From positions 1,411,353 through 1,443,352 of the forward strand of contig NZ_CP027806.1 of the NCBI RefSeq assembly GCF_003353065.1: a stretch of 32,000 nt of DNA, written 5' to 3'. Below, piece after piece: positions 1 through 15,900 of the stretch. The notes below the pieces were generated by a model, which saw nothing but the letters and a program-made list of their open reading frames with translations, was not told where the DNA came from and did no database searches. The position numbers and the translations under genes are program-made. Position 1 is the first letter of the stretch; each line of letters starts with the position of its first letter. This DNA comes from Cyclonatronum proteinivorum. GTDB lineage: Bacteria; Bacteroidota; Rhodothermia; Balneolales; Cyclonatronaceae.

Positions 1-498
1 GCTACTGCACAAATTGTACAACAAATACAGATTGAAAGAATCACGAGCCTTGAATTTGGTCTATTGGTTCCTGATGAAACAAAATCAATCTTAGTGACCG
101 GTGCACCTGCAGGAACTCCGTCTGTTACAAGTCCAACTAGCGCCGCAAGATTTACAATAACAAAGTCGGGCATACCTGTTACTTTTACCTTGGCGCTTCC
201 TTCAGTGCTTGATGGTTTAGCAAGTACTCCAACTGAGGGCGAAACTTTAGCCTTAAACTTCGATGATACCGCAGATGGTGATAATCCAAATTTAGGCCTT
301 GTAACAGATGCCGACGGTACTAATACCTATGCATTTACCCCTGTTGATGGTGCATCTGTAGATTTAGAAACTGAAGCTTCAGCATTTGATACACTTACAA
401 CTTTTGATATTGTAATCGGTGGTACAGTTGTAGCAAGTGATACACAAGTGGCAGGAAATTACCGTGGAGTAATTACACTTACAGTTGACTACAACTAA
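1..498 (+). CDS. DUF4402 / spore-coat-protein-U-like secreted fimbrial subunit (5' end outside window)
   Basis: Frame 1 is open from base 1 (ATAQIVQQIQIERITSLEFGLLVPDE...), so the ATG at 64 is internal. The sequence is T/S/G/A/V-rich and ends ...QVAGNYRGVITLTVDYN, the C-terminal signature I associate with DUF4402/SCPU-type pilins. A PapD-like chaperone gene follows directly. It is markedly AT-richer than the neighbours. Confidence 0.7.
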   Translation, partial: ATAQIVQQIQIERITSLEFGLLVPDETKSILVTGAPAGTPSVTSPTSAARFTITKSGIPVTFTLALPSVLDGLASTPTEGETLALNFDDTADGDNPNLGLVTDADGTNTYAFTPVDGASVDLETEASAFDTLTTFDIVIGGTVVASDTQVAGNYRGVITLTVDYN

Positions 499-607: not shown

Positions 608-1498
608 ATGATTCGTTCCGAGGAAAAGTTCCCCATGTCCCGCAAACTGCTTTCTGTAACCGGCTTTATGCTGCTGTTCGGCCTGCTGATGGTCCCGTTT
701 TGGGGCGGCAGCGCACAGCAGGCGCAGGCACAGGTCAGCCTCGCCCCGACATCTCTTTTTATATTTGAGACAGGTGGCATTGGCGAGTTATTTGTAAGTA
801 ACCGCAGTCAAATACCGCAGGAAGTGAATGTGCGGTTTGAGTTTCAGTTCCCGACCTCCGATGCGGAGGGCAACATCCGCATGACAGAAGGGGATGAGGC
901 GATTGCGGCCGAATGGGGACTGGGAGAAATGGTTCGGGTCTTCCCGAGGCGGCTCGTGCTGCAGCCGGGCGAAACACAAACCCTGCGGGTACAGGTTCGC
1001 CCGATGCGCGACCGGCCCGACGGCATGTTTTTCACCCGCGCCATTGTGAGCTCGAACGCCCTGCAGCAGGATGTCGGTCAGCAGGAAGCGGCCGAAGGCA
1101 TCCGCACGCAGATCAACTACATCCTCGAGCAGTCCATCCCCGTGTTCTACCGCAGGGGCAGCAACACCACCGGCGTGGACGTAGAACGAATCGAAGCGAG
1201 CCGTGCCGAACAGGGCCTGAACCTGCTGGTTCACCTGCAGCGCACGGGCAACAGTCCTTTTATGGGTACCATGGGTGCCCAATTGTTCGATATGAACGGC
1301 AATCAGCTTGCCGAAAGCAGCTCCTCGGCCTTCCTCTACTTTGATGAACGCCGCCGGATGACGCTTCGGCACGAGGACCTGCCCCCGGGCCGCTACCGGG
1401 TCGAGCTTTGGTTCGAAACACAGCGGCGCGACATGGCCTCGGGCAATATCGTACAGGCACCCCGCATCACCCACAGCACGATTGTAGAATTACCCTGA
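608..1498 (+). CDS. PapD-like periplasmic pilus chaperone (paralog 1)
   Basis: Signal peptide (...GFMLLFGLLMVPFWGGSAQQAQAQ) followed by a PapD/FimC-like pattern. The pattern elements are VSLAPTSLFIF...ELFVSN, VRVFPRRLVLQPGETQTLRVQVRP...DGMFFTRAIV, and IPVFYRRG (compare the FYRP motif of classical chaperones). Alternative start ATG at 635. Confidence 0.75.
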   Translation: MIRSEEKFPMSRKLLSVTGFMLLFGLLMVPFWGGSAQQAQAQVSLAPTSLFIFETGGIGELFVSNRSQIPQEVNVRFEFQFPTSDAEGNIRMTEGDEAIAAEWGLGEMVRVFPRRLVLQPGETQTLRVQVRPMRDRPDGMFFTRAIVSSNALQQDVGQQEAAEGIRTQINYILEQSIPVFYRRGSNTTGVDVERIEASRAEQGLNLLVHLQRTGNSPFMGTMGAQLFDMNGNQLAESSSSAFLYFDERRRMTLRHEDLPPGRYRVELWFETQRRDMASGNIVQAPRITHSTIVELP

Positions 1499-1746: not shown

Positions 1747-2340
1747 ATGCTATTGCAACGTAGTTCCTTTTGTGAGCGCTTTCAGCGTGCCCTGTGCGGC
1801 CTTGTGCTGCTTGCGGGTTTGCTGCTGAGCAGCGCTTTATGGAGCAGTTCAGGCATTGCGCAGGCGCAAAACGGCGATGACCCTACGACAGCGACCATCA
1901 GCGTTACGGGCACGGTCATTCTCGGCCTCACCATTGAAGGGGTGCTCGATCTCGTCTTTGATGATATCGTAGCCGGCGATCCGAAAACCATCAACCTTGA
2001 TGGCACGGCAACCGGTGCATCCGTAACCGGTGAAGAGCAGGCCGGCAAGTTCCGCATCGACACAAGGGGGAACTTCACCCTCGAGTTCGTCGATCTGCCG
2101 AACGAAATGATTGGTCCCGACGGGGCCTCCATGCCGGTGAGCTTCTTTAGCGGCTGGTCAGAAGATGATGACGGCGCCAATGCCACCAATCCTGTAGAAA
2201 CCGGCGCCCCAACGCCGGTGCTTGTACCCGAGAGCGAAGTCTTCGTCTTCCTCGGGGCAACCGTAGAACCCCCGCCCACCCAAACACTGGGGCAATACGA
2301 AACCACCGTAACCCTCCGCGCCACCTTCGGCGTGGACTAA
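1747..2340 (+). CDS. DUF4402-like secreted fimbrial subunit (second subunit)
   Basis: The start is moved to ATG 1747 (residue 76 of the tracked ORF) because the upstream 225 nt translate the heptamer tract. From 1747 there is a signal peptide (MLLQRSS...LVLLAGLLLSSALWSSSGIAQAQ). The mature part runs ISVTGTVILGLTIEGVLDLVFDDIVAG...GKFRI...TLGQYETTVTLRATFGVD, the same architecture as the first subunit. Confidence 0.65.
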   Translation: MLLQRSSFCERFQRALCGLVLLAGLLLSSALWSSSGIAQAQNGDDPTTATISVTGTVILGLTIEGVLDLVFDDIVAGDPKTINLDGTATGASVTGEEQAGKFRIDTRGNFTLEFVDLPNEMIGPDGASMPVSFFSGWSEDDDGANATNPVETGAPTPVLVPESEVFVFLGATVEPPPTQTLGQYETTVTLRATFGVD

Positions 2341-2745: not shown

Positions 2746-3546
2746 ATGCTGTTTCCGGCCCTGGTATGGGCGCAGATTACGATTACGCCTACCATCGTCT
2801 TCATGCATGATGGAGACCCTGCCGGGCGTATTACGATTACCAACAGTTCGGATGTGCCGCAGGAGGTGAATATCAGCCTCAGTTTTGGCTATCCGGATTC
2901 TGATGAGGCGGGAAATTTGCTGATGAATTATGAAGATGAAGAAGCGGCAGCGCGGTTCGGGCTCGATGATGTGATGCGGGTTTTTCCGCGACGCTTTGAG
3001 CTGGCGCCGGGAGAAAATCAGATCCTGCGCATGCAGGTACAGCAGGCAGGGATGCGCGCTCGCGAAGACGGGCTCCACTGGACCCGTATGAACATCACCT
3101 CCAACGAGCGCACCCGCGCCGTTGATGAGGGTGGAGCAGACCGGATCGGGGCGCGCATCAGTTACCGGATTCAGCAGAACATCGGCATTTTTTACAGGAA
3201 GGGGGAGGTCCGTACGGGCCTCGAACTGCTGCAGCTCAGCGACCGCCGCGATGCGGAAACCGGCGAGCTGCACCTCATCCCCCGCCTGCAGCGCACGGGC
3301 AACAGTCCGTTTATGGGCACCATGTTCGCAAGCCTCCGCGACGCGAGCGGCGCGGTTGTACGCGAAAGCGAGCGCACCTTCAGCGTGTACTTCACCCAAA
3401 CCCGCCCCATCACCCTCGACACCACCGACCTCCCCCCGGGCCGCTACACCGCCCGCCTCCGCTTAGAACCCACCCGTACCGACCTCAACCCCCGCGACCA
3501 AATCCCCGGCGAACCCTTAGAAATCGACCTGGAGGTCGCATGGTAA
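2746..3546 (+). CDS. PapD-like periplasmic pilus chaperone (paralog 2)
   Basis: Same pattern as paralog 1: ITITPTIVFM...ITITNSS, MRVFPRRFELAPGENQILRMQVQ, IGIFYRKG, LQRTGNSPFMGTM, DLPPGRY. The ATG at 2746 leaves only MLFPALVWAQ as a signal peptide. The frame is open back to 2677 and encodes a hydrophobic extension (IILFSFLIASAL), so the true start may be a non-ATG codon upstream. Confidence 0.7.
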   Translation: MLFPALVWAQITITPTIVFMHDGDPAGRITITNSSDVPQEVNISLSFGYPDSDEAGNLLMNYEDEEAAARFGLDDVMRVFPRRFELAPGENQILRMQVQQAGMRAREDGLHWTRMNITSNERTRAVDEGGADRIGARISYRIQQNIGIFYRKGEVRTGLELLQLSDRRDAETGELHLIPRLQRTGNSPFMGTMFASLRDASGAVVRESERTFSVYFTQTRPITLDTTDLPPGRYTARLRLEPTRTDLNPRDQIPGEPLEIDLEVAW

Positions 3547-3589
3547 ATGGGAAAGCGCACCTAAAACGCAACCGCCGAAGAGATGGAGT

Positions 3590-5125
3590 GTCGGGTTCGG
3601 GAAGTGTGGTGGGGATGGTGGGGAAGGGCTCCAAATTCGCCTCTTCAGAGGGGAATTTTGCGGGTTCTTCGCGGGAAATGGAACCGAGTAGCCATGCCAA
3701 ATTAAGCGTCCGACCTCCGAAATTACTTCCCCCCTCCGCTCTTCCCAATTCCCCTCTCGAGAGGGGTGCCCCCGGGAAAAAGTCTTTCGAAGGCAAAAAT
3801 GCCGGAACAGCCCCCAATTTTAAAATAGCCCTTATGCCATTGGGGCGGGGTGTGGAAATGTTGTCAAGTGGGAAGGCCCCCGAAATTACCACGAAAGCCG
3901 GTTACACGCACCGCGTACCCAACATCGAGAGCAATGATGTACCGGGTTGTGCCGGGGCCCCGTGCCCTCCACACCCCGCCCGTTCGCTGCGCTCACCGGG
4001 GCACCCCTCTCGAGAGGGGAATTTTTCTGGTTCTTCGAAGAAAGTTGAACCGAAAGACCTTGCCAAATTAAGCGTCCGACTTCCGAAATTACTTACCCCC
4101 TCCGCTCTCCCCAATTCCCCTCTCGAGAGGGGTGCCCCCGGGAAAAAGTCTTTCGAAGTCACAAAGATCAGAACAGCCCCCAATTTCAAAATGGCCCTTA
4201 TGCCATCGGGGCGGGGTGTGGAAATGTTGTCAAGAGGGAAAAACCCAATTATCACCCCGAAAGCAAGCAACACGCACCACGTACCCCACATCGAGAGCTA
4301 TGATGTGCCGGTAGGTGCCGGGGTCATGTGCCCTCCACACCCCGCCCGTTCGCTGCGCTCACCCGGGCACCCCTCTCGAGAGGGGAATTTTGCTGGTTCT
4401 TCGCAGAAAGTAGAACCGAAGCACCTTCCCAAATTAAGCGTCCGACTTCCGAAAGTAATTACCCCCTCCGCACTCCCCAATTCCCCTCTCGAGAGGGGTG
4501 CCCCCTGGAAAAATTTGTTCAAATGCAAAAAAGCCAGGACAGCCCATAATTTAAAAATGGCCCCGAAGCCATCGGGGCGGGGTGTGGAAATGTTGTCAAG
4601 TGGGAAGGCCCCCGAAATTACCACGAAAGCGGGTTACACGCACCACGTACCCAACATCGAGAGCAATGATGTACCGGGTGGTGCCGGGGTCTCGTGCCCT
4701 CCACACCCCGCCCGTTCGCTGCGCTCACCCGGGCACCCCTCTCGAGAGGGGAATTTTTCTGGTTCTTCGAAGAAAGTTGAACCGAAGCACCTTCCCAAAT
4801 TAAGCGTCCGACTTCCGAAAGTAATTACCCCCTCCGCACTCCCCAATTCCCCTCTCGAGAGGGGTGCCCCCGGGAAAAAGTCTTTCGAAGTCACAAAGAT
4901 CAGAACAGCCCCCAATTTCAAAATGGCTCCGTTGCCAATGGGGCGGGGTGTGGAAATGTTGTCAAGTGGGAAAAACCCAATTATCACCCTGAAAGCCTGC
5001 AACGCGCACCACGTACCCCACATCGAGAGCAATGATGTTCCGGGTTGTGCCGGGGTCTCGTGCCCTCCACACCCCGCCCGTTCGCTGCGCTCACCCGGGC
5101 ACCCCTCTCGAGAGGGGAGTTTTGC
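3590..5125. repeat. Tandem array of a 366-bp unit (~4.2 copies) carrying 8 perfect copies of the palindrome CCCCTCTCGAGAGGGG plus one degenerate copy
   Basis: Perfect palindromes lie at 3751, 4117, 4483 and 4849 (flank orientation B) and at 4004, 4370, 4736 and 5102 (flank orientation A). A degenerate A copy lies near 3638. All same-type spacings are exactly 366 bp. Extended ~23-28-bp flanks (GGGCACCCCTCTCGAGAGGGGAATT) are inverted between the A and B sites. Confidence 0.95.
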
Positions 5126-5189
5126 CAATCCCGCCGCGGTCTGCCGGCTGCGGTCTGCCGTCCTGGTCCCTTTATTGCTGCTGATTTTC

Positions 5190-8141
5190 ATGATGGGGTT
5201 CATCCTTCCCCTTTCCCCATCTCCCCAAAACACGGCATCCGCTTCAACCTCAGCTTCTTTCTTCTTCGACGATACGGATGAAGTGGTGCTCATTTTTAGC
5301 TATCCGGCGGTGGGGCGGGTGTATGTTACGGCTTTGTTCGATTACAATCAGAATGAGCTGCTGATTCCGGTTACGGAGATGTTTACGCTGCTGGGGGTAA
5401 ATTTTTCGCGCGGGGAGACGCAGCGGAATGTGATCGAGGGCGTTTTTCTGACCAACGGGGAGCGGTATTCGATGAATTTCGATAATTTCAGCATCATCAA
5501 GGGCGGGCGGCGGTATGAGTTTGATGCGGAGCGTATGCACTCCGGGGCCCTGGATTTTTACCTCACGCCTGATGTGTGGGAAGATGTGTTCGGGCTGGAA
5601 TTCTCCTTTAATTTCAGCGCGCTGAGTCTGTCGCTGCGCACCGAGCGTATCCTTCCCATAGAGGAGCGCCGGCAGCGGGAGCAGGCGCGGCAGCGGATTG
5701 AGGCCCTGGATTTCGGGCGGTCTTTTAACCCGCTGCTGTTTCCGCGGGAGCGCTCGGTTGTGCGGACCGGCTTTTTGGATTACAACCTGAGTGCCTCGAG
5801 TCTGGTGAACGAACAGCTCCAGAATTACAGCTACAGCTTTATTGGCGGCGGGGAGTTTCTGGGCGGCGATATACAGGGCTCCCACGTTGGGGGCTACACC
5901 GCCGACGGGCAGTGGTTTAACCGTACGAGTAACCTGCGCTGGCGCTATGTGATGCCGGATAATCCGTTTGTGACGACCCTCACCGCGGGGCAGATCAGTA
6001 CCGGCGGTATTAACAGTACGCGGATTCGCGGGCTTTCGATGACCAACGAGCCGGTCGAGTCCCGGCAGCTGTATGGCACCTATGTGCTGGAAGGCCGGGC
6101 CGAGCCGGACAGTGAAATTGAACTCTATTTCAACAACCGCCTGCTGGAGTACACCCGGGCCGACGGCCTCGGGTTTTATCGTTTTGAAGTGCCGCTGCGC
6201 TACGGCACGACCCGCCTCGAAACCCGCATCTACACCCCGAGCGGCGCAATGGAAGTAAGTGAGCGGCAGATTCAGGTGCCTTTTGTGTTCCTGCCGCCGG
6301 GTCAGGTGCAGTACAATCTGGAAGGAGGGGTGCTCGATCAGACTTTTGGGGCGAGCGGCACCAACGTAGCGGCGCATGGCAACGTCGCCTACGGACTAAA
6401 CAGCTGGCTCACGACCCGCGCCGGTATGGAGTACAATGAGTTTGAGAGCGAGGTGCCCAACGCTTACGGCTCCCTCTCGGCCCGCGTATTCTCGCAGTAT
6501 CTGGTGAATGTCGATCTCGTACCTAATGCGTTTTACCGGGCACAGAGCAGCGTCGTGTTTGCCTCAAGCCGCAGCATTGCCGCAACCTATACCTGGTTCG
6601 ATGGTGATTCCCGCTTTAATACGCGGCAGGCGACCGATCAGCTCACTCTGAATTTTTATACGCCCATCCCGTTTTTCAGCAGTTTCAATGCCGGGGTGCG
6701 GTTTTCCGGGGATGTGGTGCGCTACAGCTGGGGCAGCGAAACCCGGGGTTCGGGCGATTTGTTTTTTCGCCTGATGGATGTAAACCTGCGCTTCAACTAC
6801 CGCAATACCCTCATTCAGAGCGGCAGCAGCCTTTCAAGGGGCAACGGGCAGCTTACGGCCACCGGCTCCTACACCATTCCGAGGCAGTCGGTGCTGCCCC
6901 GGCCTTTCCGGAGCGTGTTTCTGCGCGGATCGCTGGTGTATGATGAGCGGCTGAATCAGATTCGCTCCGTAGATGCACAGCTTTCCCGTAATATCGGACG
7001 GATTGGCCGTTTTAATGTGGGGATGACGCGGCAGCTGCTCAACAACATCACCATTGTGCAGGGCGGGCTTAGCCTGGATTTGGGGGGCAAGGTGCGTTCA
7101 TCGACTGATTTCCGCGGGGCATCCGGCAACTACAACCTGCGGCAGGGGCTGCGCGGCTCGGTCGGTTTCGATGATCAGGCAACCTATCTGCAAGCCACGG
7201 ACCGTCAGCAGGTCGGGCGTTCAGCGGCTTCGGTTGTGCTTTTCATCGATAACAACAACAGCGGTACCTTCGATGAAGGCGACGAGCTGCTGCCCTATGC
7301 CGCCGTTCGTCTCGACCGTTCGGCAAGCAGCCGGGTTGGCAGGGACGGTATTCTGCGCCTCACGCAGCTGCAAAGCTATTACCGCTACAATCTCGAAATC
7401 AACCGTAACGCCATCCCGCATCCGCTGCTCGTGCCGGCCAAAGATCAGTTCAGTTTTGTGGCCGATCCGAATCAGTACAAGCGCATCGAAATCCCGTTTT
7501 ACCGCTCCGGCGTGATCGACGGCGAAGTGCTGATCCGCCGGGCCGGCGAAACCGAAGGGCAGGGCGGGATGCGGCTGCTGCTCAGCGGAATTGATCACGA
7601 TTATTCCGAAGTTATCCGTACATTCTTTGGTGGCGGGTTTTATGCAATGGATATCCCTCCGGGCCGCTACACCCTCGAAGTTGATCCCGGTCAGCTGGAT
7701 TTCCTCGGTCTCGTTCCGTTTGACGGGCTTACGGAATTTGAAATACGTGCCCTTGCTGACGGCGATTTTGTTGAAGATATTCGTATCATGCTGGTTCCGC
7801 CCGGAGAAGCATTTGTGCCCGTAACGGCGGAAAGTTTACTTGAACAAGAGCTTTTTGATGAATTGAAGGCGTCCAAACAGGATGCCATCCGGAATTATGT
7901 ACGCGCACAGCATCTTATCTATACGCAGGATTTCAGGGCGGCTTTACAGGCCATTGACGCCTCGCTCCGAATATTCGAAACAGATCACGGACTTGCACTC
8001 CGGGGTACCATTCTGTATCTGCTGGGCGACCGCGATGAAGCGCGCAGGCACTGGCTGCGTGCAAATGAGCGGAATCCCGATATACCGATCCCCAGTACCG
8101 AACTGCTTGACCTGATGATAAGAAACCAAGGGCAGCGCTAA
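5190..8141 (+). CDS. Usher-like outer-membrane pilus assembly protein with C-terminal CarboxypepD_reg-like and TPR modules
   Basis: The tracked ORF formally starts at 3540, but its first ~1.6 kb is the repeat array (see findings). I start at ATG 5190; TTG 5175 is also possible. An usher-like plug/barrel pattern is present: TAGQISTGGINSTRIRGLSMTNEPVESRQLYGTYVLEGRAEPDSEIELYFNNRLLEYTRADGLGFYRFEVPLRYGTTRLETRIYTPSGAMEV. Long beta-rich Y/F/N/S/R sequence follows, then GVIDGEVLIRR...IPPGRYTLEVDP. The tail is TPR-like (FRAALQAIDASLRIFETDHGLALRGTILYLLGDRDEARRHWLRANERNPD). The gene sits downstream of subunit and chaperone genes. Confidence 0.6.
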   Translation: MMGFILPLSPSPQNTASASTSASFFFDDTDEVVLIFSYPAVGRVYVTALFDYNQNELLIPVTEMFTLLGVNFSRGETQRNVIEGVFLTNGERYSMNFDNFSIIKGGRRYEFDAERMHSGALDFYLTPDVWEDVFGLEFSFNFSALSLSLRTERILPIEERRQREQARQRIEALDFGRSFNPLLFPRERSVVRTGFLDYNLSASSLVNEQLQNYSYSFIGGGEFLGGDIQGSHVGGYTADGQWFNRTSNLRWRYVMPDNPFVTTLTAGQISTGGINSTRIRGLSMTNEPVESRQLYGTYVLEGRAEPDSEIELYFNNRLLEYTRADGLGFYRFEVPLRYGTTRLETRIYTPSGAMEVSERQIQVPFVFLPPGQVQYNLEGGVLDQTFGASGTNVAAHGNVAYGLNSWLTTRAGMEYNEFESEVPNAYGSLSARVFSQYLVNVDLVPNAFYRAQSSVVFASSRSIAATYTWFDGDSRFNTRQATDQLTLNFYTPIPFFSSFNAGVRFSGDVVRYSWGSETRGSGDLFFRLMDVNLRFNYRNTLIQSGSSLSRGNGQLTATGSYTIPRQSVLPRPFRSVFLRGSLVYDERLNQIRSVDAQLSRNIGRIGRFNVGMTRQLLNNITIVQGGLSLDLGGKVRSSTDFRGASGNYNLRQGLRGSVGFDDQATYLQATDRQQVGRSAASVVLFIDNNNSGTFDEGDELLPYAAVRLDRSASSRVGRDGILRLTQLQSYYRYNLEINRNAIPHPLLVPAKDQFSFVADPNQYKRIEIPFYRSGVIDGEVLIRRAGETEGQGGMRLLLSGIDHDYSEVIRTFFGGGFYAMDIPPGRYTLEVDPGQLDFLGLVPFDGLTEFEIRALADGDFVEDIRIMLVPPGEAFVPVTAESLLEQELFDELKASKQDAIRNYVRAQHLIYTQDFRAALQAIDASLRIFETDHGLALRGTILYLLGDRDEARRHWLRANERNPDIPIPSTELLDLMIRNQGQR

Positions 8142-8148
8142 CGAAACG

Positions 8149-10221
8149 ATGAAACCAACATTTTGTATGTTTGACAGGGCAAACGATGCAGTTATGATAA
8201 TCAGACCTCAGATTACACGTGTACAACAACGTATGCTTAAGCGCGAAAAAAGTCGTAAACGGCGTTTTTGGATTGCCATTGCAATTGTAGTCGCCCTATG
8301 GGGGGTACTGATGGCGCCCGCTTTGCTGTGGGCGGGCAGCCCTTTTACACAGGTGTCTTCTGATACGGTAACCCTAACGCCCTTTAGTTTCGACCCGCAG
8401 CAGGGCAACCTGTCAGATACCATTGCTGACCCCGCTTCTGATGCGGTGGTCAGCATTGCTGCCGCGACGGCTCTTGAGCGCTCTGAGCGCGAACAGCGGC
8501 TCGACCGGCTCATCCAAAGTGCGATGGTCAACTTTTTTGATTCCGGTACTTTTTTGGTAGATACCAAGGTTTCGCTGGAGTTTGTGCCGGTGCAGCGGCC
8601 CAACGGGGAGCAGGGCGGCGGCGGGGCTGTGAGTCCGGTGCGCGAAAATCTGCCCGGTTTGCCTGGCGTGCCCATGTATCTGCTGCGTTCAAGTGAAGCC
8701 CCCTCTGAAGGCGGACTGACCGAGTACAGCCTTGAGCTCCGCCGTATAGAAGTTGAAATGCTCGTTGACTCGGATTATACCGCAGATGAAATCAATTTTG
8801 TAGATCAGCTGATTCGGGCAACGGCCAAAATTGACGACGCCCGCGGCGACCGTGTCACCATCACACGCTCCTCCTTCCCGCAGCGCCGCACAGCACAGAA
8901 CGGCACCGCCCCAACCGTACAGCCATTGCCCGACACCTTCCCGGGGCCTGATGCCCTGCAGGAGCGTCCGCCGGTACCTCCTATGGAAGTGCCGCTATGG
9001 GAGCAGATTTTAGCGGAACCCCTCTATTGGATTCCCCTGCTCATGCTGTTTGGGTTATTCATTGGTTTTTTAATATGGCTGCTCACCCGTAAGCGCGATG
9101 AGCGCGACAAAGAACCCATGAGCCGTCCGGATGCGCCTGCACCGCCACCGGTCATGCCGCCCATCGGTGAAGCTGTACACCCGGATACGCTTGCGCGGAA
9201 AAAGCGGGAAATGGAAAAGCGGGAGCAGGCCAGAGAAAACGACTACGCGACCTATCTGTTGGAGCAAATCATGCAGTATCCGCCGGAGATGGCGCGCCTG
9301 TTTGAATCGTGGATGAAAAAAGAAGGCGAAAAAGGTCTTATGAAGGCGGCACACATCCTGCTGCTCACCGATCCCAAGCTCGTGCGGGTGCTCAAGCCCG
9401 CCATGACCGAGGAGCGGTTTAACGCGCTAAAAGCCCGTGTTGAAGCCTCCGGTGAACAGCCGGGGGAGGAAGCCATGAAAGAGCTGCGCAACCTCACGCG
9501 CTATCTGAAAGCCCGTACGCAGGAAAATACGGTACGCCGCGGGCTGCGTGCCCTCAACGATTTCGACTTCGTACAGCATGAAGATGACGATCGCCTGCTG
9601 CTGCATCTCATAGATTACGAACCGCGCGAAATTGCCATCATCCTGAGTCACCTTGAGAGCAAGCGTGCGGCCCTCATGCTGCGGGAGTTCGAACCCGAAA
9701 AATCGCAGCAGGTCATGCTTGAGCTTCCTAAAGTGAAAAATACCGATTATGAGACCTACCGCAGTCTGGCCGAAGACTTTTTTAACCGCATCAGTACGGA
9801 TACGGACGATGATGAGCGGTTTAAGGAAAGCGATGTAGCAGAAACGGTGAAGCTGATTGAATCGCTGCCGCTGCGTCAGCAGGAAGAAACGAGCGAGCGT
9901 TTTATGCGTGAGGAAAACCCCTACGCCGCAGCCGTTACAAGCCGCATGATTACCTTCATGACGCTCTCAACGGTGAGTGATGATATCATTACGGAAGCCA
10001 TTCAGCCGATTGGCACCGAACAGCTCGGGCTGGCCCTGGCAGGTATGGATTCCGAAACGGCATTCCGGCTCATCAGCCTGCGTCCGGAGCGCGAGCAGAT
10101 GGTGCTGCATTCCGAAATGGAAAATGCGGCCGTAGTCAGCGATGAGAAAATCAATGAAGCCAAGAACAGCCTGCTCAACCGAATCCGCGCAACTGCGCGC
10201 AGCAAACAGCAAACGGTTTAG
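8149..10221 (+). CDS. Two-TM inner-membrane protein: FliF/YscJ-like periplasmic segment fused to a FliG-like (FliG_M/FliG_C or MgtE_N-like) cytoplasmic domain
   Basis: TM1 is about 8266-8333 (WIAIAIVVALWGVLMAPALLWA) and TM2 about 9022-9087 (LYWIPLLMLFGLFIGFLIWLL). The periplasmic part ends YSLELRRIEVEMLVDSDYTADEINFVDQLIRATAKIDDARGDRVTITRSSFP, resembling the end of the FliF ring domains. The cytoplasmic part has YEPREIAIILSHLESKRAALMLREFEPEKSQQVMLEL (compare the EHPQ-region of the FliG middle domain). It also has LGLALAGMDSETAFRLISLRPEREQMVLHSEMEN...INEAKNSLLNRIR (compare the FliG C-terminal torque-helix region). Alternative starts at 8167, 8194 and 8233. Confidence 0.6.
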   Translation: MKPTFCMFDRANDAVMIIRPQITRVQQRMLKREKSRKRRFWIAIAIVVALWGVLMAPALLWAGSPFTQVSSDTVTLTPFSFDPQQGNLSDTIADPASDAVVSIAAATALERSEREQRLDRLIQSAMVNFFDSGTFLVDTKVSLEFVPVQRPNGEQGGGGAVSPVRENLPGLPGVPMYLLRSSEAPSEGGLTEYSLELRRIEVEMLVDSDYTADEINFVDQLIRATAKIDDARGDRVTITRSSFPQRRTAQNGTAPTVQPLPDTFPGPDALQERPPVPPMEVPLWEQILAEPLYWIPLLMLFGLFIGFLIWLLTRKRDERDKEPMSRPDAPAPPPVMPPIGEAVHPDTLARKKREMEKREQARENDYATYLLEQIMQYPPEMARLFESWMKKEGEKGLMKAAHILLLTDPKLVRVLKPAMTEERFNALKARVEASGEQPGEEAMKELRNLTRYLKARTQENTVRRGLRALNDFDFVQHEDDDRLLLHLIDYEPREIAIILSHLESKRAALMLREFEPEKSQQVMLELPKVKNTDYETYRSLAEDFFNRISTDTDDDERFKESDVAETVKLIESLPLRQQEETSERFMREENPYAAAVTSRMITFMTLSTVSDDIITEAIQPIGTEQLGLALAGMDSETAFRLISLRPEREQMVLHSEMENAAVVSDEKINEAKNSLLNRIRATARSKQQTV

Positions 10222-10286: not shown

Positions 10287-10808
10287 ATGCTTAGTAAATC
10301 CCCATCCGGTCTGAATGGCTTCCTGCCAGCCCTGACTGCTGTCCTGCTGCTCCTGCTGCTGGTCGGATGCAGCTCCTCCGGCACGGCCGTACCGGCAGGG
10401 AGTGAGGGCGGAGATCCTCAGGCGGCGGAAGACGTACTGCAACGCCGTACGCTTGAAGTGGCAGATACCTCCGCGGCGCAGGCATCGCAGGATTCTGTTA
10501 CCGAAGCAGAAGAGGTCCGGCTGAGCTCCCGTTTTGTTGAAGAGGCGTTTGCGGACTACGCACAGCGGACCAACACCAAGCTCACCCTCTTTTTTCAGGC
10601 ACAGCAGCGCTACCATGCCGGGCAGTATGTGGAAGCGCTGCGGCTCATAAACCGCGCCCTGGAGTGGGGCGAAAGCGCCGATGCCCTTGCCATGAAAGGA
10701 CTGATATTTGCCGGTCTTCAGGCCGAAGAGCAGGCCATTAGCTACTGGCAGCGCGCCATTGCGCTCGATCCGGATGTGTTTGAGCGCATCCTGCTACCCC
10801 GCGAATAG
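10287..10808 (+). CDS. TPR-repeat lipoprotein
   Basis: Lipobox LLLLVGC after a hydrophobic leader. The C-terminal half is TPR-like (QQRYHAGQYVEALRLINRALEWGESADALAMKGLIFAGLQAEEQAISYWQRAIALDP). Confidence 0.7.
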   Translation: MLSKSPSGLNGFLPALTAVLLLLLLVGCSSSGTAVPAGSEGGDPQAAEDVLQRRTLEVADTSAAQASQDSVTEAEEVRLSSRFVEEAFADYAQRTNTKLTLFFQAQQRYHAGQYVEALRLINRALEWGESADALAMKGLIFAGLQAEEQAISYWQRAIALDPDVFERILLPRE

Positions 10809-10874: not shown

Positions 10875-11693
10875 ATGCGCATATCCTGGGCTACCGTAAT
10901 CTGCATCCTTGTGTTTGGCTTTTTGCTTGTACTCTCCGTACTGCAAACGCTGGATGTTGTGCAGATTGTCCGATTCCCGTCCGCCCTTGATTTTCTGAAT
11001 CTGCCGAGCGTAGGCATCGTGGCCGGCGGGGTTATGCTGCACGTGCTTATCTCGTATCCTTTCTATGAAATCAGGCGTGCGTTAGTCGCTTTCATACACG
11101 TGTTTTCGGAAAGTGCCCTCGACAGGGAAACGTTTAAGAACGATCGCAGGCGTATTCTGGAATGGCAGCGCCTGTACCGCGACAACCGCAATAAAACACG
11201 TAAAGAGCTGGCCGAACAGCTCAGCGATACGTTTGAAGGCTACGTTTTTACCCTGCTGAATACCAACTACAGCCGGGATGAAATTCTGGATATGGGCGGC
11301 ATCAAAATTGAAGAGCGCTACAACGATACGGTACAAACTTCGCGGGTTTTCCAAACCATGGGTACAGCCGCGCCGGCAATCGGGATGCTGGGGACGCTTA
11401 TGGGGCTCATCATCATGCTGGCCAATTTTCAGGATGCCGAGCAGCTCGGTCTCGGGCTTTCATTTGCCCTCATGACAACGCTGTACGGTCTGGTGCTGGC
11501 GCATTTGCTGATGTTTCCGCTGGCAACCAAGTTCAGGGTAATGGCGCAGCATCAGTACTTCCGGGAGCGGGTGATGCTGGAAGGCATCCTCATGCTGCAC
11601 GAGGGCAAACCACCGCTCATGATTTATGACAAGCTCGGTGCTTTCATTTCAACCCTGAAAGACGATACCAAAGATTTTGCGCCCACCGGCTGA
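10875..11693 (+). CDS. MotA/TolQ/ExbB proton-channel family protein (MotA-like stator subunit)
   Basis: Two N-terminal TM helices, a charged cytoplasmic loop, then the family signature TMGTAAPAIGMLGTLMGLIIML...LSFALMTTLYGLVLAHLLMFPLATKF. At 272 aa it has no long ZorA-type tail. A MotB-like gene follows directly. Confidence 0.85.
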   Translation: MRISWATVICILVFGFLLVLSVLQTLDVVQIVRFPSALDFLNLPSVGIVAGGVMLHVLISYPFYEIRRALVAFIHVFSESALDRETFKNDRRRILEWQRLYRDNRNKTRKELAEQLSDTFEGYVFTLLNTNYSRDEILDMGGIKIEERYNDTVQTSRVFQTMGTAAPAIGMLGTLMGLIIMLANFQDAEQLGLGLSFALMTTLYGLVLAHLLMFPLATKFRVMAQHQYFRERVMLEGILMLHEGKPPLMIYDKLGAFISTLKDDTKDFAPTG

Positions 11694-11756: not shown

Positions 11757-12419
11757 ATGCGATTCCGTCCTACCGATGATAATGAAGGCTTCACCAATGA
11801 GTCCTGGCAGACGAGCTTCCTCGATATCTTTATGCTGCTGCTCGCCTTTTTTATTATCCTGGCCGGGCTGGCCCGCTACGACATGCGTATTTTTGATGAC
11901 GACGCCCGCGGCCTGCGTTCTCTGATTCAGGGTACCATGCGGGTGCAGACCCCGATAGATGAGCTGCGGTTTGATATGCAGGATGCGCTCTCTGCTGAAA
12001 TCGGGAGTCAGATGCTGCAGCTCGATAGCGACCGCGATGAAATGCGCCTGAGTTTCACCGATGCCCGTTTTTTTGAAACGGCCCGCGCGGAGCTGCTACC
12101 GGAAGGCAAGGCGCTGATAGACCGCATTATGGAAGTCATGGCCGAGCTCAAATTCTATCAGTATTACATTGATGTTGAAGGCCATACCGATAACCGGCCC
12201 ATCAGCACTTTACAGTTTCCCTCCAACTGGGAGCTCTCCGCGGCCCGTGCCTCCAACATCATCCGCTATTTTATGGAGCAGGGCTTCGAACCGTCCCGCC
12301 TCAAAGCCAGCGGCTACGCCGAAACCCGCCCAATTGTACCCAATCAGGACGAATTCGGCAACGACCTCCCCGACAATCAGGCCCTGAACCGCCGGGTTGT
12401 GATCCGGATTTATTATTGA
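11757..12419 (+). CDS. MotB-like stator subunit with OmpA-type peptidoglycan-binding domain
   Basis: The N-terminal TM has the conserved channel Asp (SFLDIFMLLLAFFIIL; GAT at 11823-11825). The C-terminal OmpA-like domain reads VEGHTDNRPI...FPSNWELSAARASNIIRYF...SGYAETRPI...NRRVVIRI. Confidence 0.85.
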   Translation: MRFRPTDDNEGFTNESWQTSFLDIFMLLLAFFIILAGLARYDMRIFDDDARGLRSLIQGTMRVQTPIDELRFDMQDALSAEIGSQMLQLDSDRDEMRLSFTDARFFETARAELLPEGKALIDRIMEVMAELKFYQYYIDVEGHTDNRPISTLQFPSNWELSAARASNIIRYFMEQGFEPSRLKASGYAETRPIVPNQDEFGNDLPDNQALNRRVVIRIYY

Positions 12420-12892: not shown

Positions 12893-12924
12893 GTGCTTTT
12901 GTCACTGGCAAAAGCACTTTTTTT
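12893..12924 (+). terminator. Terminator-like hairpin plus T7 run abutting the first ATG of the protease ORF
   Basis: GTGCTTTTG (12893-12901), loop TCACTGG, CAAAAGCAC (12909-12917), then TTTTTTT (12918-12924). The ATG follows at 12925. Confidence 0.5.
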
Positions 12925-15900
12925 ATGTTTAATGTACCAATAATAAACTCTATGATCTCAAAATCTATAAGATTTAAGGTATTGATTCTGAGTGCTTTGG
13001 CATTTCTTCTTATGATCCCTGCAGGCCTGCAGGCACAGGAAGAAATCAAATGGCACGAAGGATATATCAAAATTAAACTTGCGCCGCAGGCAAACGATCT
13101 GCTTCAGCGCACGAGCCTCGCGGATAACCCGCAGCTAACCGGAATCGAGGCTGTGGATGCCCTGCATCAGCAGTTCAATGTGCTCAGCATGGAGCAGGTG
13201 TTCGTTACCGACCCCCGCTTTGCCGAGCGTCATCGCCGTCACGGCCTCGACCGCTGGTTCCGCATTCAGTTTGATGCTTCTGCTTCAGAAGATCAGGTTA
13301 TCAGCAGCTACAGTGCACTGCCCGAAATTGAAGTGGCAGAAAAAATTTATGTACGGCATCTTATTGCTGACCCTGTAAGCTCACAGGAACTGTTTGAAAG
13401 TATTCAGAACTTCGACGATCCCCGTCTTGATGAGCAGTGGCACTACAATAACACCGGTCAGACCGGCGGCAACCCCGGTTCTGATATCAGCCTGTTTCAG
13501 GCCTGGGGTCTGGAAACCGGGAATTCAGATGTCATCGTCAAAGTCATGGACAGCGGTATCGATCTGAACCATCCTGATCTTGAAGAAACCTTTTGGGATA
13601 ACCCCGTGCCCGGCCCCGAAAACGGATTCGACGGCGATGTGCACGGCTGGAATTTTGTAAACAACACCCCTGATATTCAGGATCAGAACAATCACGGTAC
13701 ACACGTATCCGGTACGATTGCAGCCCGCAACAACAACGGAGTCGGAGTAGCCGGTATCGCTGGTGGTGATGAAAATGGTCCTGGTGTCAAGATTATGACC
13801 GCGCGCGTTTTCTCCGGCGCTGGTGATACGCCGGGCGGCTTCCCGCAGGGCTTTGTGTACGGGGCCGATAACGGTGCAGCCATCTCCAACAACAGCTGGG
13901 GCGGCGGCGGTTTCTCGCAGGTGCTTAACGACGCCATCGACTACTTTATCGAAAATGCGGGTTTTGACGCCGATGGCAACCCCTGGGGTCCAGTACAGGG
14001 CGGTCTGGTTTTCTTTGCCGCCGGTAACAACGGCTCTTCAAGCCCGAGTCAGCCAATTGCTTCTAACCCCGATGTAATTGCGGTTGCCTCAACCAATCAC
14101 AACGATCAGAAAGCCTGGTACTCGCAGTTTGGTACGTGGATTGATATTTCCGCGCCCGGTGGTGAAACCAATTCAGCAGCCAATCAGGGTGTACTGAGCA
14201 CAACCCGCAACAATGGGTACGCCTTCTTTCAGGGTACGTCCATGGCTTCCCCCCATGCTACTGGTGTAGCGGCTTTGGTTGCTTCGAGATTTCCGGGCAG
14301 CACCGCCGATGAAATCTACGGACGCATTCTTTTCACCGTTGACGACATCGAAGACGCCCTTGCCCCAACCCATCAGGGGTTGATGGGCGCCGGACGTATT
14401 AACGCTTTCCGCGCGCTTGAAGAAGACGACGGCGTGCCGCCTGCTACGGTTACAGACCTGACCTCGGTCGGGATGCCCGCAGAGAATTTCGTCACGCTGA
14501 GCTGGACTGCACCGGGCAGCAGCGGCGATGAAGGTCAGGCGTTTCTGTACGATCTGCGTATCTCCCAAAGCCCGATCACTGCCGATAATTTTGAGAATGC
14601 CGACGAACTTGAGATCGGACGCCCCGCTGCCGCAGGTGCGACGGAAATGGTTGACGTGACCGACCTTAGCCCGCAGACAACCTACTATTTCGCGCTTAAA
14701 GCCCGCGACCTCTTCGGTAACTTCAGCGATATTTCTAATGTAATTGAAGTAACAACAGACGGCTCGCCCGCCATCGCGCTGAGCGCTACGCAGTTTAGCA
14801 GTGAAATTGCCGTAGGCGATACGGAAGAGCAAACCCTGGTAATTACCAACACCGGTGAAGGGCTGCTGACCTACACCTTCCCTTCATTCCTGCAGAATAC
14901 CGCGCTCACCAACGAAAACGGCGCCCTCCTGAAAACGCAGGCCGCTTTCAACCCTACCGCTGCAGATCTTCGGCAGGCCGCACAGCGCCTGATCATTGCA
15001 CAGCATGACAGCGGACAGCTTACCCGTCCAAACAGCTATCAGCGCTCCGTGATTGAGGCCGTGCAGCAGCTGCGCGCTTCTGAAGTAAGTCAGCCAGCCG
15101 CTGCGCCCGCTGATGCTTCCGTCATCATTGAGTTTGAAGCACTGTCTGCCTCAGGCGGTGAATTTTTTAATGTAACGGATGAAGGTTATTCGGGTGAACT
15201 GACAGCCGTTCGCGGCGACTTCGTGCTCAACAGCGGCCCGGGTGCCCTTTGGGCTAGTGACTTCGCGGTTCTGCTTACAACCGAGGAAGAAATCAACAGC
15301 AGTACCGTTGTGCTGCAGGTCGGCGGATTTTCTGATTTCGGACCCTCCGGCACGCGCATTCCCTGGGGCGTGGGCAACAGCGGCCCGGGAACACCGGTCA
15401 ACACGACCATCACCCTCCCCACTCCGCTGGAAATGGATGATCTGTATGTCTGGATCGGAAACGGCTGGGCGACCGGCGGCCTTGGCGAATGGGAAGGACT
15501 CGTTGAGCTGATTGGCGCTTCTGATTCCCCCGGCTTTGTGTCTTCAATTAGCCCTGCCGCTGGCTCTATCCCTGTTGGTGGCAGCACTGAAGTAACCATC
15601 ACCTTTGATGCTACCGAAATCGTTGCCGGTGTGTATGAATCTTCTACACGCCTGCTCAGCAATGATCTGAGCAACCCGCTTACCATGATCGACTTCTTCC
15701 TGCAAACAGAGGGCGGTGAACCCGTTCTTGAGGCTTCTGAGGAAGAGCTGGCATACGGTAATCTGTTCCGCAACGAATCCAGCACCCTGTCCTTTACCCT
15801 TACCAATACCGGGACTGCGCTGGCAAATGTTGGTGAAATTATCATCAGCGATGATGCATATGTGAGCAGCAACGCAGGTGATTTCCTGCTCGCGCCCGGA

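Follow-up and report, generated by a model that had tools for sequence, protein, structure and literature searches.

In a 32,000-nucleotide (nt) stretch of Cyclonatronum proteinivorum DNA (contig NZ_CP027806.1, positions 1,411,353 to 1,443,352; hereafter the window, whose own numbering is used throughout), the open reading frame (ORF) 8149..10221 on the + strand is open over 690 amino acids (aa) and encodes a head-to-tail fusion of the C-terminal half of FliF, comprising one RBM3-type domain (RBM, ring-building motif), the second transmembrane helix (TM2) and the FliG-binding tail, to a complete FliG. This gene stands sixth among the cistrons of an operon of the chaperone-usher type, a point missed by the first-pass annotation of the window, and is followed by genes for a tetratricopeptide repeat (TPR) lipoprotein and a MotAB-type stator. 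The FliF/FliG rotor with its MotAB stator is regarded as flagellum-specific; the present arrangement suggests that a flagellar-type motor has been reused to power or control a different appendage. What is new here is the finding of flagellar rotor and stator parts fused, stripped down and placed in a conserved usher context. The fusion gene and its parts are the following.

8149..10221, + strand: FliF(RBM3+TM+C-tail)-FliG(N,M,C) fusion protein, 690 aa, with alternative starts at M16 and M30
8266..8334, + strand: hydrophobic segment near the N-terminus (residues 40-62 by hydropathy), either a signal peptide or a signal anchor/TM1
8458..8871, + strand: RBM3-like ring-building domain with elements H104-127, E135-148, E192-206, H212-225 and E235-240, ending in the RGD...FP motif
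8650..8673, + strand: LPGLPxxP motif, residues 168-175, inside a 43-aa low-confidence insert (149-191) at the FliF beta-collar site
9019..9084, + strand: transmembrane helix, residues 291-312, equivalent of FliF TM2 (hydropathy, profile alignment, AlphaFold2 (AF2))
9244..9324, + strand: equivalent of the FliF C-terminal FliG-binding helix (YLLEQIMQYPPEMARLFESWM; profile alignment, column conservation)
9325..9519, + strand: FliG_N-like helical domain, residues 393-457 (colinear alignment to Escherichia coli FliG 1-68)
9559..9810, + strand: FliG_M-like domain, residues 471-554 (Pfam FliG_M 7.6e-9; family column frequencies)
9910..10218, + strand: FliG_C-like domain, residues 588-690 (Pfam FliG_C 1.5e-10)
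10081-10125, + strand: torque helix, residues 645-659, within the FliG_C-like domain

The fusion protein is unambiguously homologous to both FliF and FliG. The PDB-sequence search, the hhalign comparisons, the AF2 prediction and the column counts were all based on a family profile, an alignment of 106 sequences (A2). Against the sequences of PDB this profile retrieved FliG (PDB code: 1lkv; 2.9e-43), the engineered Vibrio FliF-FliG fusion (PDB code: 8z4d; 8e-36, in three stretches) and Salmonella FliF (PDB code: 6scn; 2.4e-8, profile positions 117-318 on FliF 369-560). Aligned to an artificial concatenate of E. coli FliF and FliG, it followed a single colinear path that starts at FliF 396, runs via TM2 and the FliF C-terminal helix, continues directly into FliG 1-68 and then covers FliG 110-318. 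The AF2 model (predicted local distance difference test (pLDDT) 80) shows a periplasmic alpha-beta-beta-alpha-beta domain, then a transmembrane helix (TM), then an all-helical tail. Its top Foldseek match in PDB is full-length FliG (PDB code: 3hjl; 1.6e-7 over 327 columns), followed by the FliF RBM3/S-ring structures 7d84, 6sd3 and 8zdt (2-8e-4, TM-score 0.52-0.57, target-normalised), while PrgK (PDB code: 2y9j), with an E value of 0.09, is far weaker than FliF RBM3. The first-pass annotation had described a natural FliF-like/FliG-like fusion and had named structure and profile comparison of the two halves as decisive; profile search, colinear alignment, hhalign and Foldseek on the AF2 model all returned FliG and FliF, which confirms the observation and supports its interpretation.

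The FliF-like part is short. Of Pfam YscJ_FliF_C only the final third finds a counterpart, RIEVEMLVD...ARGDRVTITRSSFP (residues 196-243 on profile positions 96-147 of 147), at E 1.9e-4 and 22.4 bits, under the cutoff of 23.8; hhalign places the fusion on E. coli FliF 373-436 with a probability of 94.7% (E 6e-8). These two comparisons bear out the earlier remark that the end of the periplasmic segment resembles FliF just before its second TM. The structured elements of the RBM3-like domain are modelled with pLDDT 88-98 and, in the motif that closes it (RGD...FP), R232, G233, D234 and P244 are near-invariant in the 106 sequences. RBM1/2 (Pfam YscJ_FliF, PF01514) gave no match in the fusion, and residues 63-103 are unconserved and disordered (pLDDT ~40); the periplasmic ring region is thus much reduced, as had been noted, with the RBM3-like domain alone left. 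In Salmonella FliF the two halves of RBM3 (228-270 and 382-438) flank a beta-collar of 111 aa, residues 271-381 (PMC8270960). This collar (~110 aa) is absent from the fusion, where the equivalent topological site holds the insert 149-191, of 43 aa and pLDDT ~50. The insert contains the most conserved motif of the family, LPGLPxxP, in which P169 is found in all 106 sequences, G170 in 101 and P172 in 96. On the cytoplasmic side, YPPEMARLFESWM of the fusion aligns to the E. coli FliF C-terminus DPRVVALVIRQWI; the family consensus there is npeevarlleswi, and of this FliG-binding helix W388 is conserved in 92/106 and P378 in 81/106 sequences.

The FliG-like part retains the N, M and C domains. Pfam FliG_M (PF14841) matches residues 487-547 with 36.1 bits (7.6e-9; cutoff 25) and Pfam FliG_C (PF01706) residues 588-684 with 41.7 bits (1.5e-10; cutoff 23.3), the single sequence finds the Thermotoga maritima FliG-MC structure 1lkv at 6e-10, and hhalign aligns the fusion to E. 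coli FliG 106-320 with a probability of 99%. In the N-like domain G396 is conserved in 93/106 sequences; Pfam FliG_N is above its cutoff at the corresponding position of a relative (L013, 33.1 bits), while in the query itself it matches only the M-domain repeat. The charged residues of the E. coli FliG torque helix are R281, D288 and D289. The fusion segment RPEREQMVLHSEMEN aligns to this helix (MSQRAADILRDDLAN) with R648 on R281; this column holds R in 96 and K in 8 of the 106 sequences, the D289 column has E656 in the query (E in 40/106), and E649 and E658 are also frequent. The tail had been read as FliG middle- and C-domain-like, and that reading holds, both Pfam domains being above their gathering scores; of the charged helix noted at the position of the torque helix, R648 lies on R281. 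The hinge of FliG, F-I-T-F-E-E-L (F-x-T-F), is conserved in the family. The FliM-binding motif EHPQR is degenerate (YEPRE in the fusion; in the family the Glu is kept in 73/106 and H, P and Q are not conserved), and against the FliG equivalog TIGR00207 the protein scores 57.6 bits, the cutoff being 226.7. An Mg2+ sensor of the MgtE type was also considered and rejected, as the MgtE_N matches are weak (0.027) and secondary to FliG.

By hydropathy the fusion has two hydrophobic segments (residues ~40-62 and 291-312), which delimit a periplasmic stretch of ~228 aa and leave a cytoplasmic tail of 378 aa. The topology proposed earlier is therefore right as to the two segments, the periplasmic part and the 378-aa tail, but its TM1 is probably a signal peptide in most relatives. 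With its length of ~23 aa the first segment of the query could serve as an anchor; its counterpart in most relatives ends in a cleavable-looking site, ..A/S|Q, which makes a mature topology of periplasmic domain, single TM and cytoplasmic FliG more probable than that of a two-TM FliF. The start codon may also lie further in: the database protein P0001 uses M16 and the orthologue P0004 uses M30 (8236), and either may be the true start. The best sigma-70-like match of the region, TTGACA-16-TATGAT (11/12), lies at 8171-8198, less than 50 nt into the fusion ORF as annotated. A start at M30 would suit it; this is weak, as the consensus of the scan excludes Bacteroidota-type promoters.

The fusion belongs to a large family. 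An exhaustive profile search returned 857 relatives at E <= 1e-3 and 94 representatives at <= 1e-30, and more than 100 representatives at 50% identity, of 560-750 aa, have a common layout (an N-terminal hydrophobic segment, ~200 periplasmic residues, one TM and ~350 cytoplasmic residues). A word-indexed homologue search gave 5 proteins from the single sequence and 10 from the 106-sequence alignment, a narrow-alignment profile scan of genome contigs gave one locus, and a search of a plasmid collection for the family gave no match. The fusion is under strong purifying selection: compared with the 77%-identical orthologue in L006, the ratio of nonsynonymous to synonymous substitution rates (dN/dS) is 0.06 in the fusion, where dS is near saturation; MotA has 0.08, MotB 0.07, the TPR protein 0.16 and the usher 0.10. 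Relatives are labelled as 'FliG C-terminal domain-containing', as 'FliG', as 'flagellar motor switch protein FliG' or as 'hypothetical' in the databases, and their identity as FliF-FliG fusions corrects the annotations 'FliG' and 'hypothetical'. Other non-canonical FliG-domain proteins (P0164-P0168) were met besides the family; one, of 638 aa, joins many TPR families to FliG_M and FliG_C, the others, of 478-564 aa, have FliG_M and FliG_C only. With such varied architectures, FliG domains seem to have been recruited into several non-flagellar proteins.

The remaining members of the operon are listed here.

64..498, + strand: small secreted protein, DUF4402-like (sub-threshold Pfam DUF4402 match, 1.4e-4), putatively a subunit of the fibre
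608..1498, + strand: chaperone-like periplasmic protein 1, with two predicted immunoglobulin (Ig)-like domains, paralogue of 2746-3546 (39% identical)
1747..2340, + strand: DUF4402-like subunit 2 with signal peptide (Pfam DUF4402 1.5e-3; ORF open from 1522, likely start M at 1747; alignment A7)
2746..3546, + strand: chaperone-like periplasmic protein 2 (PapD_N 6.7e-4, 20.1 bits, cutoff 23)
5190..8141, + strand: outer-membrane usher of predicted FimD/PapC fold with an extra C-terminal TPR tail, ~residues 880-978 (AF2 and Foldseek)
10287..10808, + strand: periplasmic TPR lipoprotein, 173 aa, lipobox LLVGC (TPR_2 1.1e-7)
10875..11693, + strand: MotA/PomA-type stator A subunit (MotA_ExbB 1.9e-19)
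11757..12419, + strand: MotB-type stator B subunit with plug, TM with conserved Asp and OmpA-like peptidoglycan-binding domain
12893..12917, + strand: terminator-like hairpin, 11-bp stem and T-run, 3' of MotB (consensus scan only)

Downstream of the fusion, the TPR lipoprotein stands beside it in every clade examined, that without MotAB included, and a lipobox is seen in most of the 12 relatives listed. The stator genes follow, so the adjacency to MotAB that had been reported is correct (MotA-like 10875-11693, MotB-like 11757-12419). Stator A is, judged by its sequence, of flagellar type: its PDB matches are PomA/MotA at ~1e-21 and ExbB at 0.9, and the NCBIfam models of flagellar stators (MotP, MotA, PomA) match at 1e-34 to 1e-25, all below their equivalog cutoffs (best scores 119 bits vs 237 and 111 vs 394). 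The equivalents of the prolines of TM3 and TM4, P173 and P222, are conserved in 8/8 MotAs of the clusters, as is R or K in the R90 column, the loop alignment around the latter being uncertain. In MotB, OmpA matches at 3.5e-17 and MotB_plug with 24.0 bits, which equals its cutoff, and FLD-IF aligns to YAD32F of E. coli, with the channel Asp32 retained. Residues of stator A that align to PomA T158, T185 and T186 are Thr; in Vibrio these three are essential to Na+ flow (PMC6677748). Such PomA-type Thr residues fit Na+ coupling in view of the growth of C. proteinivorum at pH 8.5-10.5 (PMC6243061), and the coupling ion is probably Na+ in this soda-lake alkaliphile. The hairpin at 12893..12917 is the probable end of the operon.

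Upstream, the usher stop codon is separated from the fusion start by 7 nt. The usher, of ~983 aa, is 100% identical to the C. proteinivorum protein P0170, named 'fimbria/pilus outer membrane usher protein' at NCBI, and several of its homologues carry PF00577. Against PDB and Pfam, sequence profiles of the usher, chaperone-like and subunit families gave TPR or transthyretin-like matches at most and did not place the usher, and its hhalign comparison to E. coli FimD was not significant. The AF2 model of the usher (pLDDT 88) matches FimD at 9.7e-28 and PapC at 1.4e-22 in Foldseek, the range being 1e-27 to 1e-15 over 710-940 columns; at the level of the predicted structure the usher fold is thus confirmed. 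The TPR tail is paralogous to the 173-aa TPR lipoprotein (BLASTP 4e-7). The usher start is uncertain because the ORF is open back to 3540 through a repeat array, and a giant protein of 1533 aa read from ORF 3540-8141 was considered and rejected, its first ~530 codons being a 366-bp tandem repeat with palindromes that stays open by chance. This repeat (3640-5125; 4.1 copies at 87% identity and without indels) separates the usher gene from the second chaperone-like gene. Every unit has a 36-nt core and two copies of a perfect 16-bp palindrome, CCCCTCTCGAGAGGGG; in L006 and L001 the core is again found upstream of the usher gene. The array looks like a repetitive extragenic palindrome (REP)-like or regulatory intergenic array.

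The identities of the four cistrons before the usher are less firm. Homologues of the chaperone-like proteins are encoded directly upstream of the usher in all related loci, and PapD_N is found below threshold in 5/10 members of the family (best 6.7e-4). The family profile gave no match against PDB and hhalign to E. coli FimC had a probability of 0.4%, which is not significant, so that we infer the chaperone role from position and weak matches. A profile of the DUF4402-like subunits likewise gave no match against PDB, DUF4402 itself scoring near or below its cutoff. The 5' end of 64..498 may precede the start of the window or be mis-called; its product has the C-terminal motif G-x-Y...TLTV-Y, common to the subunits of related clusters. 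Tandem arrays of heptamers and 14-24-nt units also occupy the intergenic regions at 1543-1651 and 2422-2653, the one upstream of the DUF4402-like gene, the other upstream of chaperone-like gene 2 (AGTGATT x5.4 at 100% identity, GAGGTCA-like and TTCTGTC being examples). A role in the fibre operon as slipped-strand (phase-variation-like) elements or as regulatory ones is conceivable.

The link of usher and motor module is conserved. The order chaperone-like protein, usher, fusion, TPR lipoprotein, MotA, MotB is kept in relatives of 75% and 39% fusion identity, and again in a marine/brine clade (L008-L017, L025), found by a metagenome scan with the sub-clade alignment A3, in which the fusions are ~22-25% identical to the query and the ushers have their nearest counterparts in Balneolaceae and Fodinibius. 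Another three lineages (L033, L034, L035) were picked solely for their TPR-tailed ushers, and the motor module was present in 3/3. The synteny is kept in every locus with a TPR-tailed usher, MotA being visible in the 17 loci with long enough contigs, and the intergenic gaps in relatives are overlapping or tiny. A TPR tail is found in 35 of 120 usher clusters. In 4/4 clusters with same-family ushers devoid of the tail (a Saprospiraceae metagenome-assembled genome, an Algoriphagus genome, Fodinibius halophilus with a SPOR tail, and the JGI metagenome contig L031 with an OmpA tail), the fusion and MotAB are absent, and a giant adhesin, DUF4402-like genes and a chaperone-like gene are present. The first-pass annotation had called for a survey of the neighbours of homologues; usher, TPR lipoprotein and MotAB turn out to be the conserved ones, the usher having escaped its notice. 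It was right to place the fusion outside a flagellar gene cluster: other flagellar genes (fli, flg, flh) were found neither in the 32-kb window nor in related loci, and no FliM or FliN gene was found at any locus examined.

Peptidoglycan-binding domains move between the components. MotB of the marine clade has OmpA and two SPOR domains, and in the motor-less F. halophilus cluster SPOR is on the usher itself; SPOR lies on MotB at L013:13103-14608 and on the usher at L030:10001-13720, the two ushers being ~66% identical. The shift looks like a domain relocation that accompanied gain or loss of the motor module. The placement of SPOR and OmpA implies that every variant ties the system to peptidoglycan, and that in the motor variant the tie is the stator. 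Beside some loci (L033, L035) genes for AraC-type and two-component regulators are found. A co-variation of LPGLP loss with TPR-motif loss in L035 was considered and dropped, the motif being only mildly altered (LPGLA) and hence uninformative.

We lean towards the view that these genes encode an ion-driven, probably Na+-driven, rotor-stator module coupled via TPR proteins to an outer-membrane chaperone-usher fibre machine. Flagellar FliF self-assembles into a ring of ~33-35 subunits. The RBM3-like domains would likewise oligomerise into an inner-membrane ring, with a FliG ring as its cytoplasmic face and a stoichiometry fixed at 1:1. Stators anchored to peptidoglycan by MotB would push on the torque helix (R648) using ion flux, probably of Na+. 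The LPGLPxxP loop would be displayed on the periplasmic face of the ring, where the lipoprotein and the usher tail would bind it with their TPR domains, through which movement or force at the inner membrane could reach the usher and power or gate the export, extension or movement of the fibre. Ordinary chaperone-usher systems manage this step with no source of energy. The system is not a flagellum, since it has no FliM/FliN switch, export gate or rod.

Several points weigh against a rotor-stator module that acts on the usher. The ring and its rotation are hypothetical; nothing rod-like or axial is encoded through which torque might cross the periplasm; the part of the fusion that lies there is small, and its link to the TPR proteins is purely hypothetical. 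The assignments 'chaperone' and 'pilin' rest on sub-threshold matches. In the torque helix the D288 column has S655 in the query and S in 53/106 sequences, and in MotA the E98 column is A or S, a conserved Glu following one position later in a loop whose alignment is uncertain. In clade L018-L024, finally, the fusion is followed by a 368-aa protein and then by the TPR lipoprotein, and neither MotAB nor an usher is adjacent, so the stator link is not universal in cis. The 368-aa protein (L020:11969-13075) has a signal peptide, an outer-membrane-barrel-like C-terminus (...GISATFRF) and no Pfam match; with it the inner-membrane module may have an outer-membrane partner of a second kind. From the layout of this clade, the invariant core consists of the fusion together with the TPR lipoprotein and a barrel protein of the outer membrane. 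The 'minimal rotor' of the first-pass annotation is, as it stands, a hypothesis.

The rival that we take most seriously, while thinking it unlikely, is a force-transducing adaptor in which no ring rotates freely: FliG_C would only dock the stator, whose rotation would be turned into a pull or conformational change that passes via the single TM and the periplasmic domain to the TPR proteins and the usher, by analogy with ExbBD-TonB or TolQR-TolA, which energise outer-membrane proteins. It would account for the very small periplasmic part and for the lack of a rod, export gate or bearing; its target would be an outer-membrane beta-barrel, either the usher or the barrel-like 368-aa protein in L020, as in Ton/Tol. 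The peptidoglycan-binding SPOR and OmpA tails of the motor-less ushers point the same way, to a static tether made active by the motor version. However, what the fusion has retained of the FliF periplasmic region is precisely RBM3, which builds the ring, and the interface motif RGD...FP hardly varies; engineered FliF-FliG fusions do form rings (PDB code: 8z4d; PMC11481574). Docking alone would moreover need only FliG_C, whereas the full FliG N/M/C is retained.

A quite improbable alternative is an unpowered assembly platform or regulator, in which a ring scaffolds or licenses the chaperone-usher machine, for instance by localising it to a pole or through a sensing function of the ARM/MgtE_N-like FliG domains, and MotAB serves only as a peptidoglycan anchor or load sensor. 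The fold of FliG_M/N is common to the Mg2+-sensing MgtE_N, to which weak matches were obtained, one clade lacks adjacent MotAB, and AraC-type/two-component regulators stand beside L033 and L035. Yet the stator, at dN/dS 0.07-0.08, has kept its ion-conducting Asp, its plug and the prolines of MotA, which would not be expected for a passive anchor, and the torque-helix Arg is near-invariant.

That the neighbourhood is due to chance or is merely transcriptional, an independent motor module (e.g. a remnant or variant of a motility motor) lying downstream of a fimbrial operon, is very hard to reconcile with a synteny kept at 22-39% identity in every TPR-tailed-usher locus, with the 7-nt gap in the window and overlapping or tiny gaps in relatives, with the homology of the usher tail to the TPR protein of the module itself and with the absence of the module where ushers have no tail; in L018-L024 the fusion does exist away from ushers, and real flagellar gene sets in some Balneolaceae (PMC9909488) mean that flagellar genes were available in the lineage. 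A divergent genuine flagellar FliF/FliG, or a decaying relic of one, is scarcely credible: all homology points to flagellar proteins and relatives are annotated 'flagellar motor switch protein FliG', but RBM1/2, the beta-collar and EHPQR are absent, the score is 57.6 against an equivalog cutoff of 226.7 bits, no other flagellar gene occurs in the 32 kb or any related locus, and purifying selection and the breadth of the family exclude decay.

If the ion-driven rotor-stator module coupled to the usher is real, it would offer a minimal and genetically simple rotor-stator pair in which torque generation and FliF:FliG stoichiometry could be studied, and no chaperone-usher machine before it would have been coupled to ion-motive force. 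That no energy is needed at the outer membrane is a textbook feature of the chaperone-usher pathway. It would also be a data point on the exaptation of flagellar parts out of, or into, other envelope machines. More tentatively, and with doubt prevailing, one may think of a new class of powered surface organelle, in which a FliF-RBM3/FliG ring and a Na+ stator drive a chaperone-usher fibre or giant adhesins by rotation, by extrusion and retraction, or by lateral movement; this would be a new motility or adhesion machine in Balneolales and further lineages. It is a possibility that what survives in the system is a stage of the flagellar motor that had rotor and stator and lacked a type III export gate, which would bear on the origin of the flagellum.

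Beyond the operon, the window encodes an S8 protease with a type IX secretion system (T9SS) tail, an S10 peptidase, a major facilitator superfamily (MFS) transporter, a pyruvate formate-lyase (PFL), hydrolases and others. The first of these lies directly 3' of MotB (12925-17931); it is a subtilase of 1668 aa with HYDIN/VesB-type Ig domains and a T9SS C-terminal sorting domain. Large T9SS-tailed proteins are found next to the cluster in relatives too: L006 has an S8 protease and L033 a beta-helix protein, and giant proteins with SprB, Gly_rich or PATR domains are encoded upstream in L027, L029, L030, L033 and L034, which hints at an interplay of the usher system with T9SS cargo. The PFL at 23900-26182 on the - strand is full-length (PFL-like 1.5e-211, with a glycine-radical domain); C. 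proteinivorum is described as an obligate aerobe, and the species description holds nothing on motility (PMC6243061).

In the full-text literature we found no description of the fusion family, nor of a rotor/stator module joined to an usher, and none on DUF4402. A 2025 survey left open the role of rotor proteins in filament-less genomes (PMC12199754). The 'incomplete flagellar pathway' of Balneolaceae was considered as a possible sighting of the fusion system and dropped, since genuine flagellar genes are numerous in the supplement; true sets of flagellar genes do occur in some Balneolaceae (PMC9909488). The only natural precedent, not mentioned in the first-pass annotation, is a FliF-FliG fusion of Chlamydiaceae, a protein of ~330 aa with RBM2, one further RBM-like region and a FliG_M-like domain only, which was proposed to work with the injectisome (PMC4768692). 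Both fusions are natural and join a shortened FliF (reduced periplasmic RBMs, TM) to a FliG-like part with no complete flagellum; the one described here differs in its length of 600-700 aa, in having RBM3, the FliF tail and all FliG domains with a torque helix, and in having its own stator and an usher. Full-length FliF-FliG fusions of Salmonella and Vibrio (PDB codes: 8z4d/8z4g) have been engineered and form MS-rings (PMC11481574). They have the same head-to-tail order, but they are laboratory constructs with a complete FliF in real flagellar motors, whereas the present fusion is natural, truncated and non-flagellar.

Compared with FliF/FliG/MotAB of the flagellum itself, the system shares RBM3 with its RGD...F motif, TM2, the FliG-binding helix, FliG N/M/C and the torque-helix Arg, and, in the stator, the MotA prolines and the Asp, plug and OmpA domain of MotB. 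The FliF:FliG pair, 1:1 in the flagellum, is here fixed at 1:1 by one polypeptide. Unlike the flagellar protein, the fusion has no RBM1/2 and has a 43-aa LPGLP loop in place of a 111-aa beta-collar; EHPQR, FliM/FliN, export gate, rod, hook and filament are absent, the neighbours are usher, chaperone-like and DUF4402-like genes, and the scores are under all flagellar equivalog cutoffs. SctJ/PrgK and SpoIIIAG are alike in their signal peptide, RBM domain(s) followed by a single TM, and RBM fold, but the likeness is weaker (PrgK 0.09 vs FliF 2-8e-4) and they have no FliG-like cytoplasmic part.

Classical chaperone-usher systems need no inner-membrane or energy-coupling component. With such pili (FimD/PapC; archaic Csu-type) the operon shares the usher N-terminal domain, plugged barrel and C-terminal beta-sandwich domains, as well as the order small subunits, periplasmic two-domain proteins, usher; it differs in that the usher is TPR-tailed and followed by a rotor-stator module, and in that homology to PapD and pilins is only putative. 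In ExbBD-TonB, TolQR-TolA-Pal, GldLM/PorLM-T9SS and AglRQS-Glt, as in the system proposed here, an inner-membrane ion motor of the MotAB family is tied genetically to an outer-membrane beta-barrel machine via periplasmic connectors. Those systems have stators of the ExbB/TolQ/GldL type, a single-pass B-subunit or a transducer of the TonB/TolA/GldM type, and no FliG or FliF homologue, whereas the stator described here is flagellar-type by its sequence and its presumed partner is a FliG domain.

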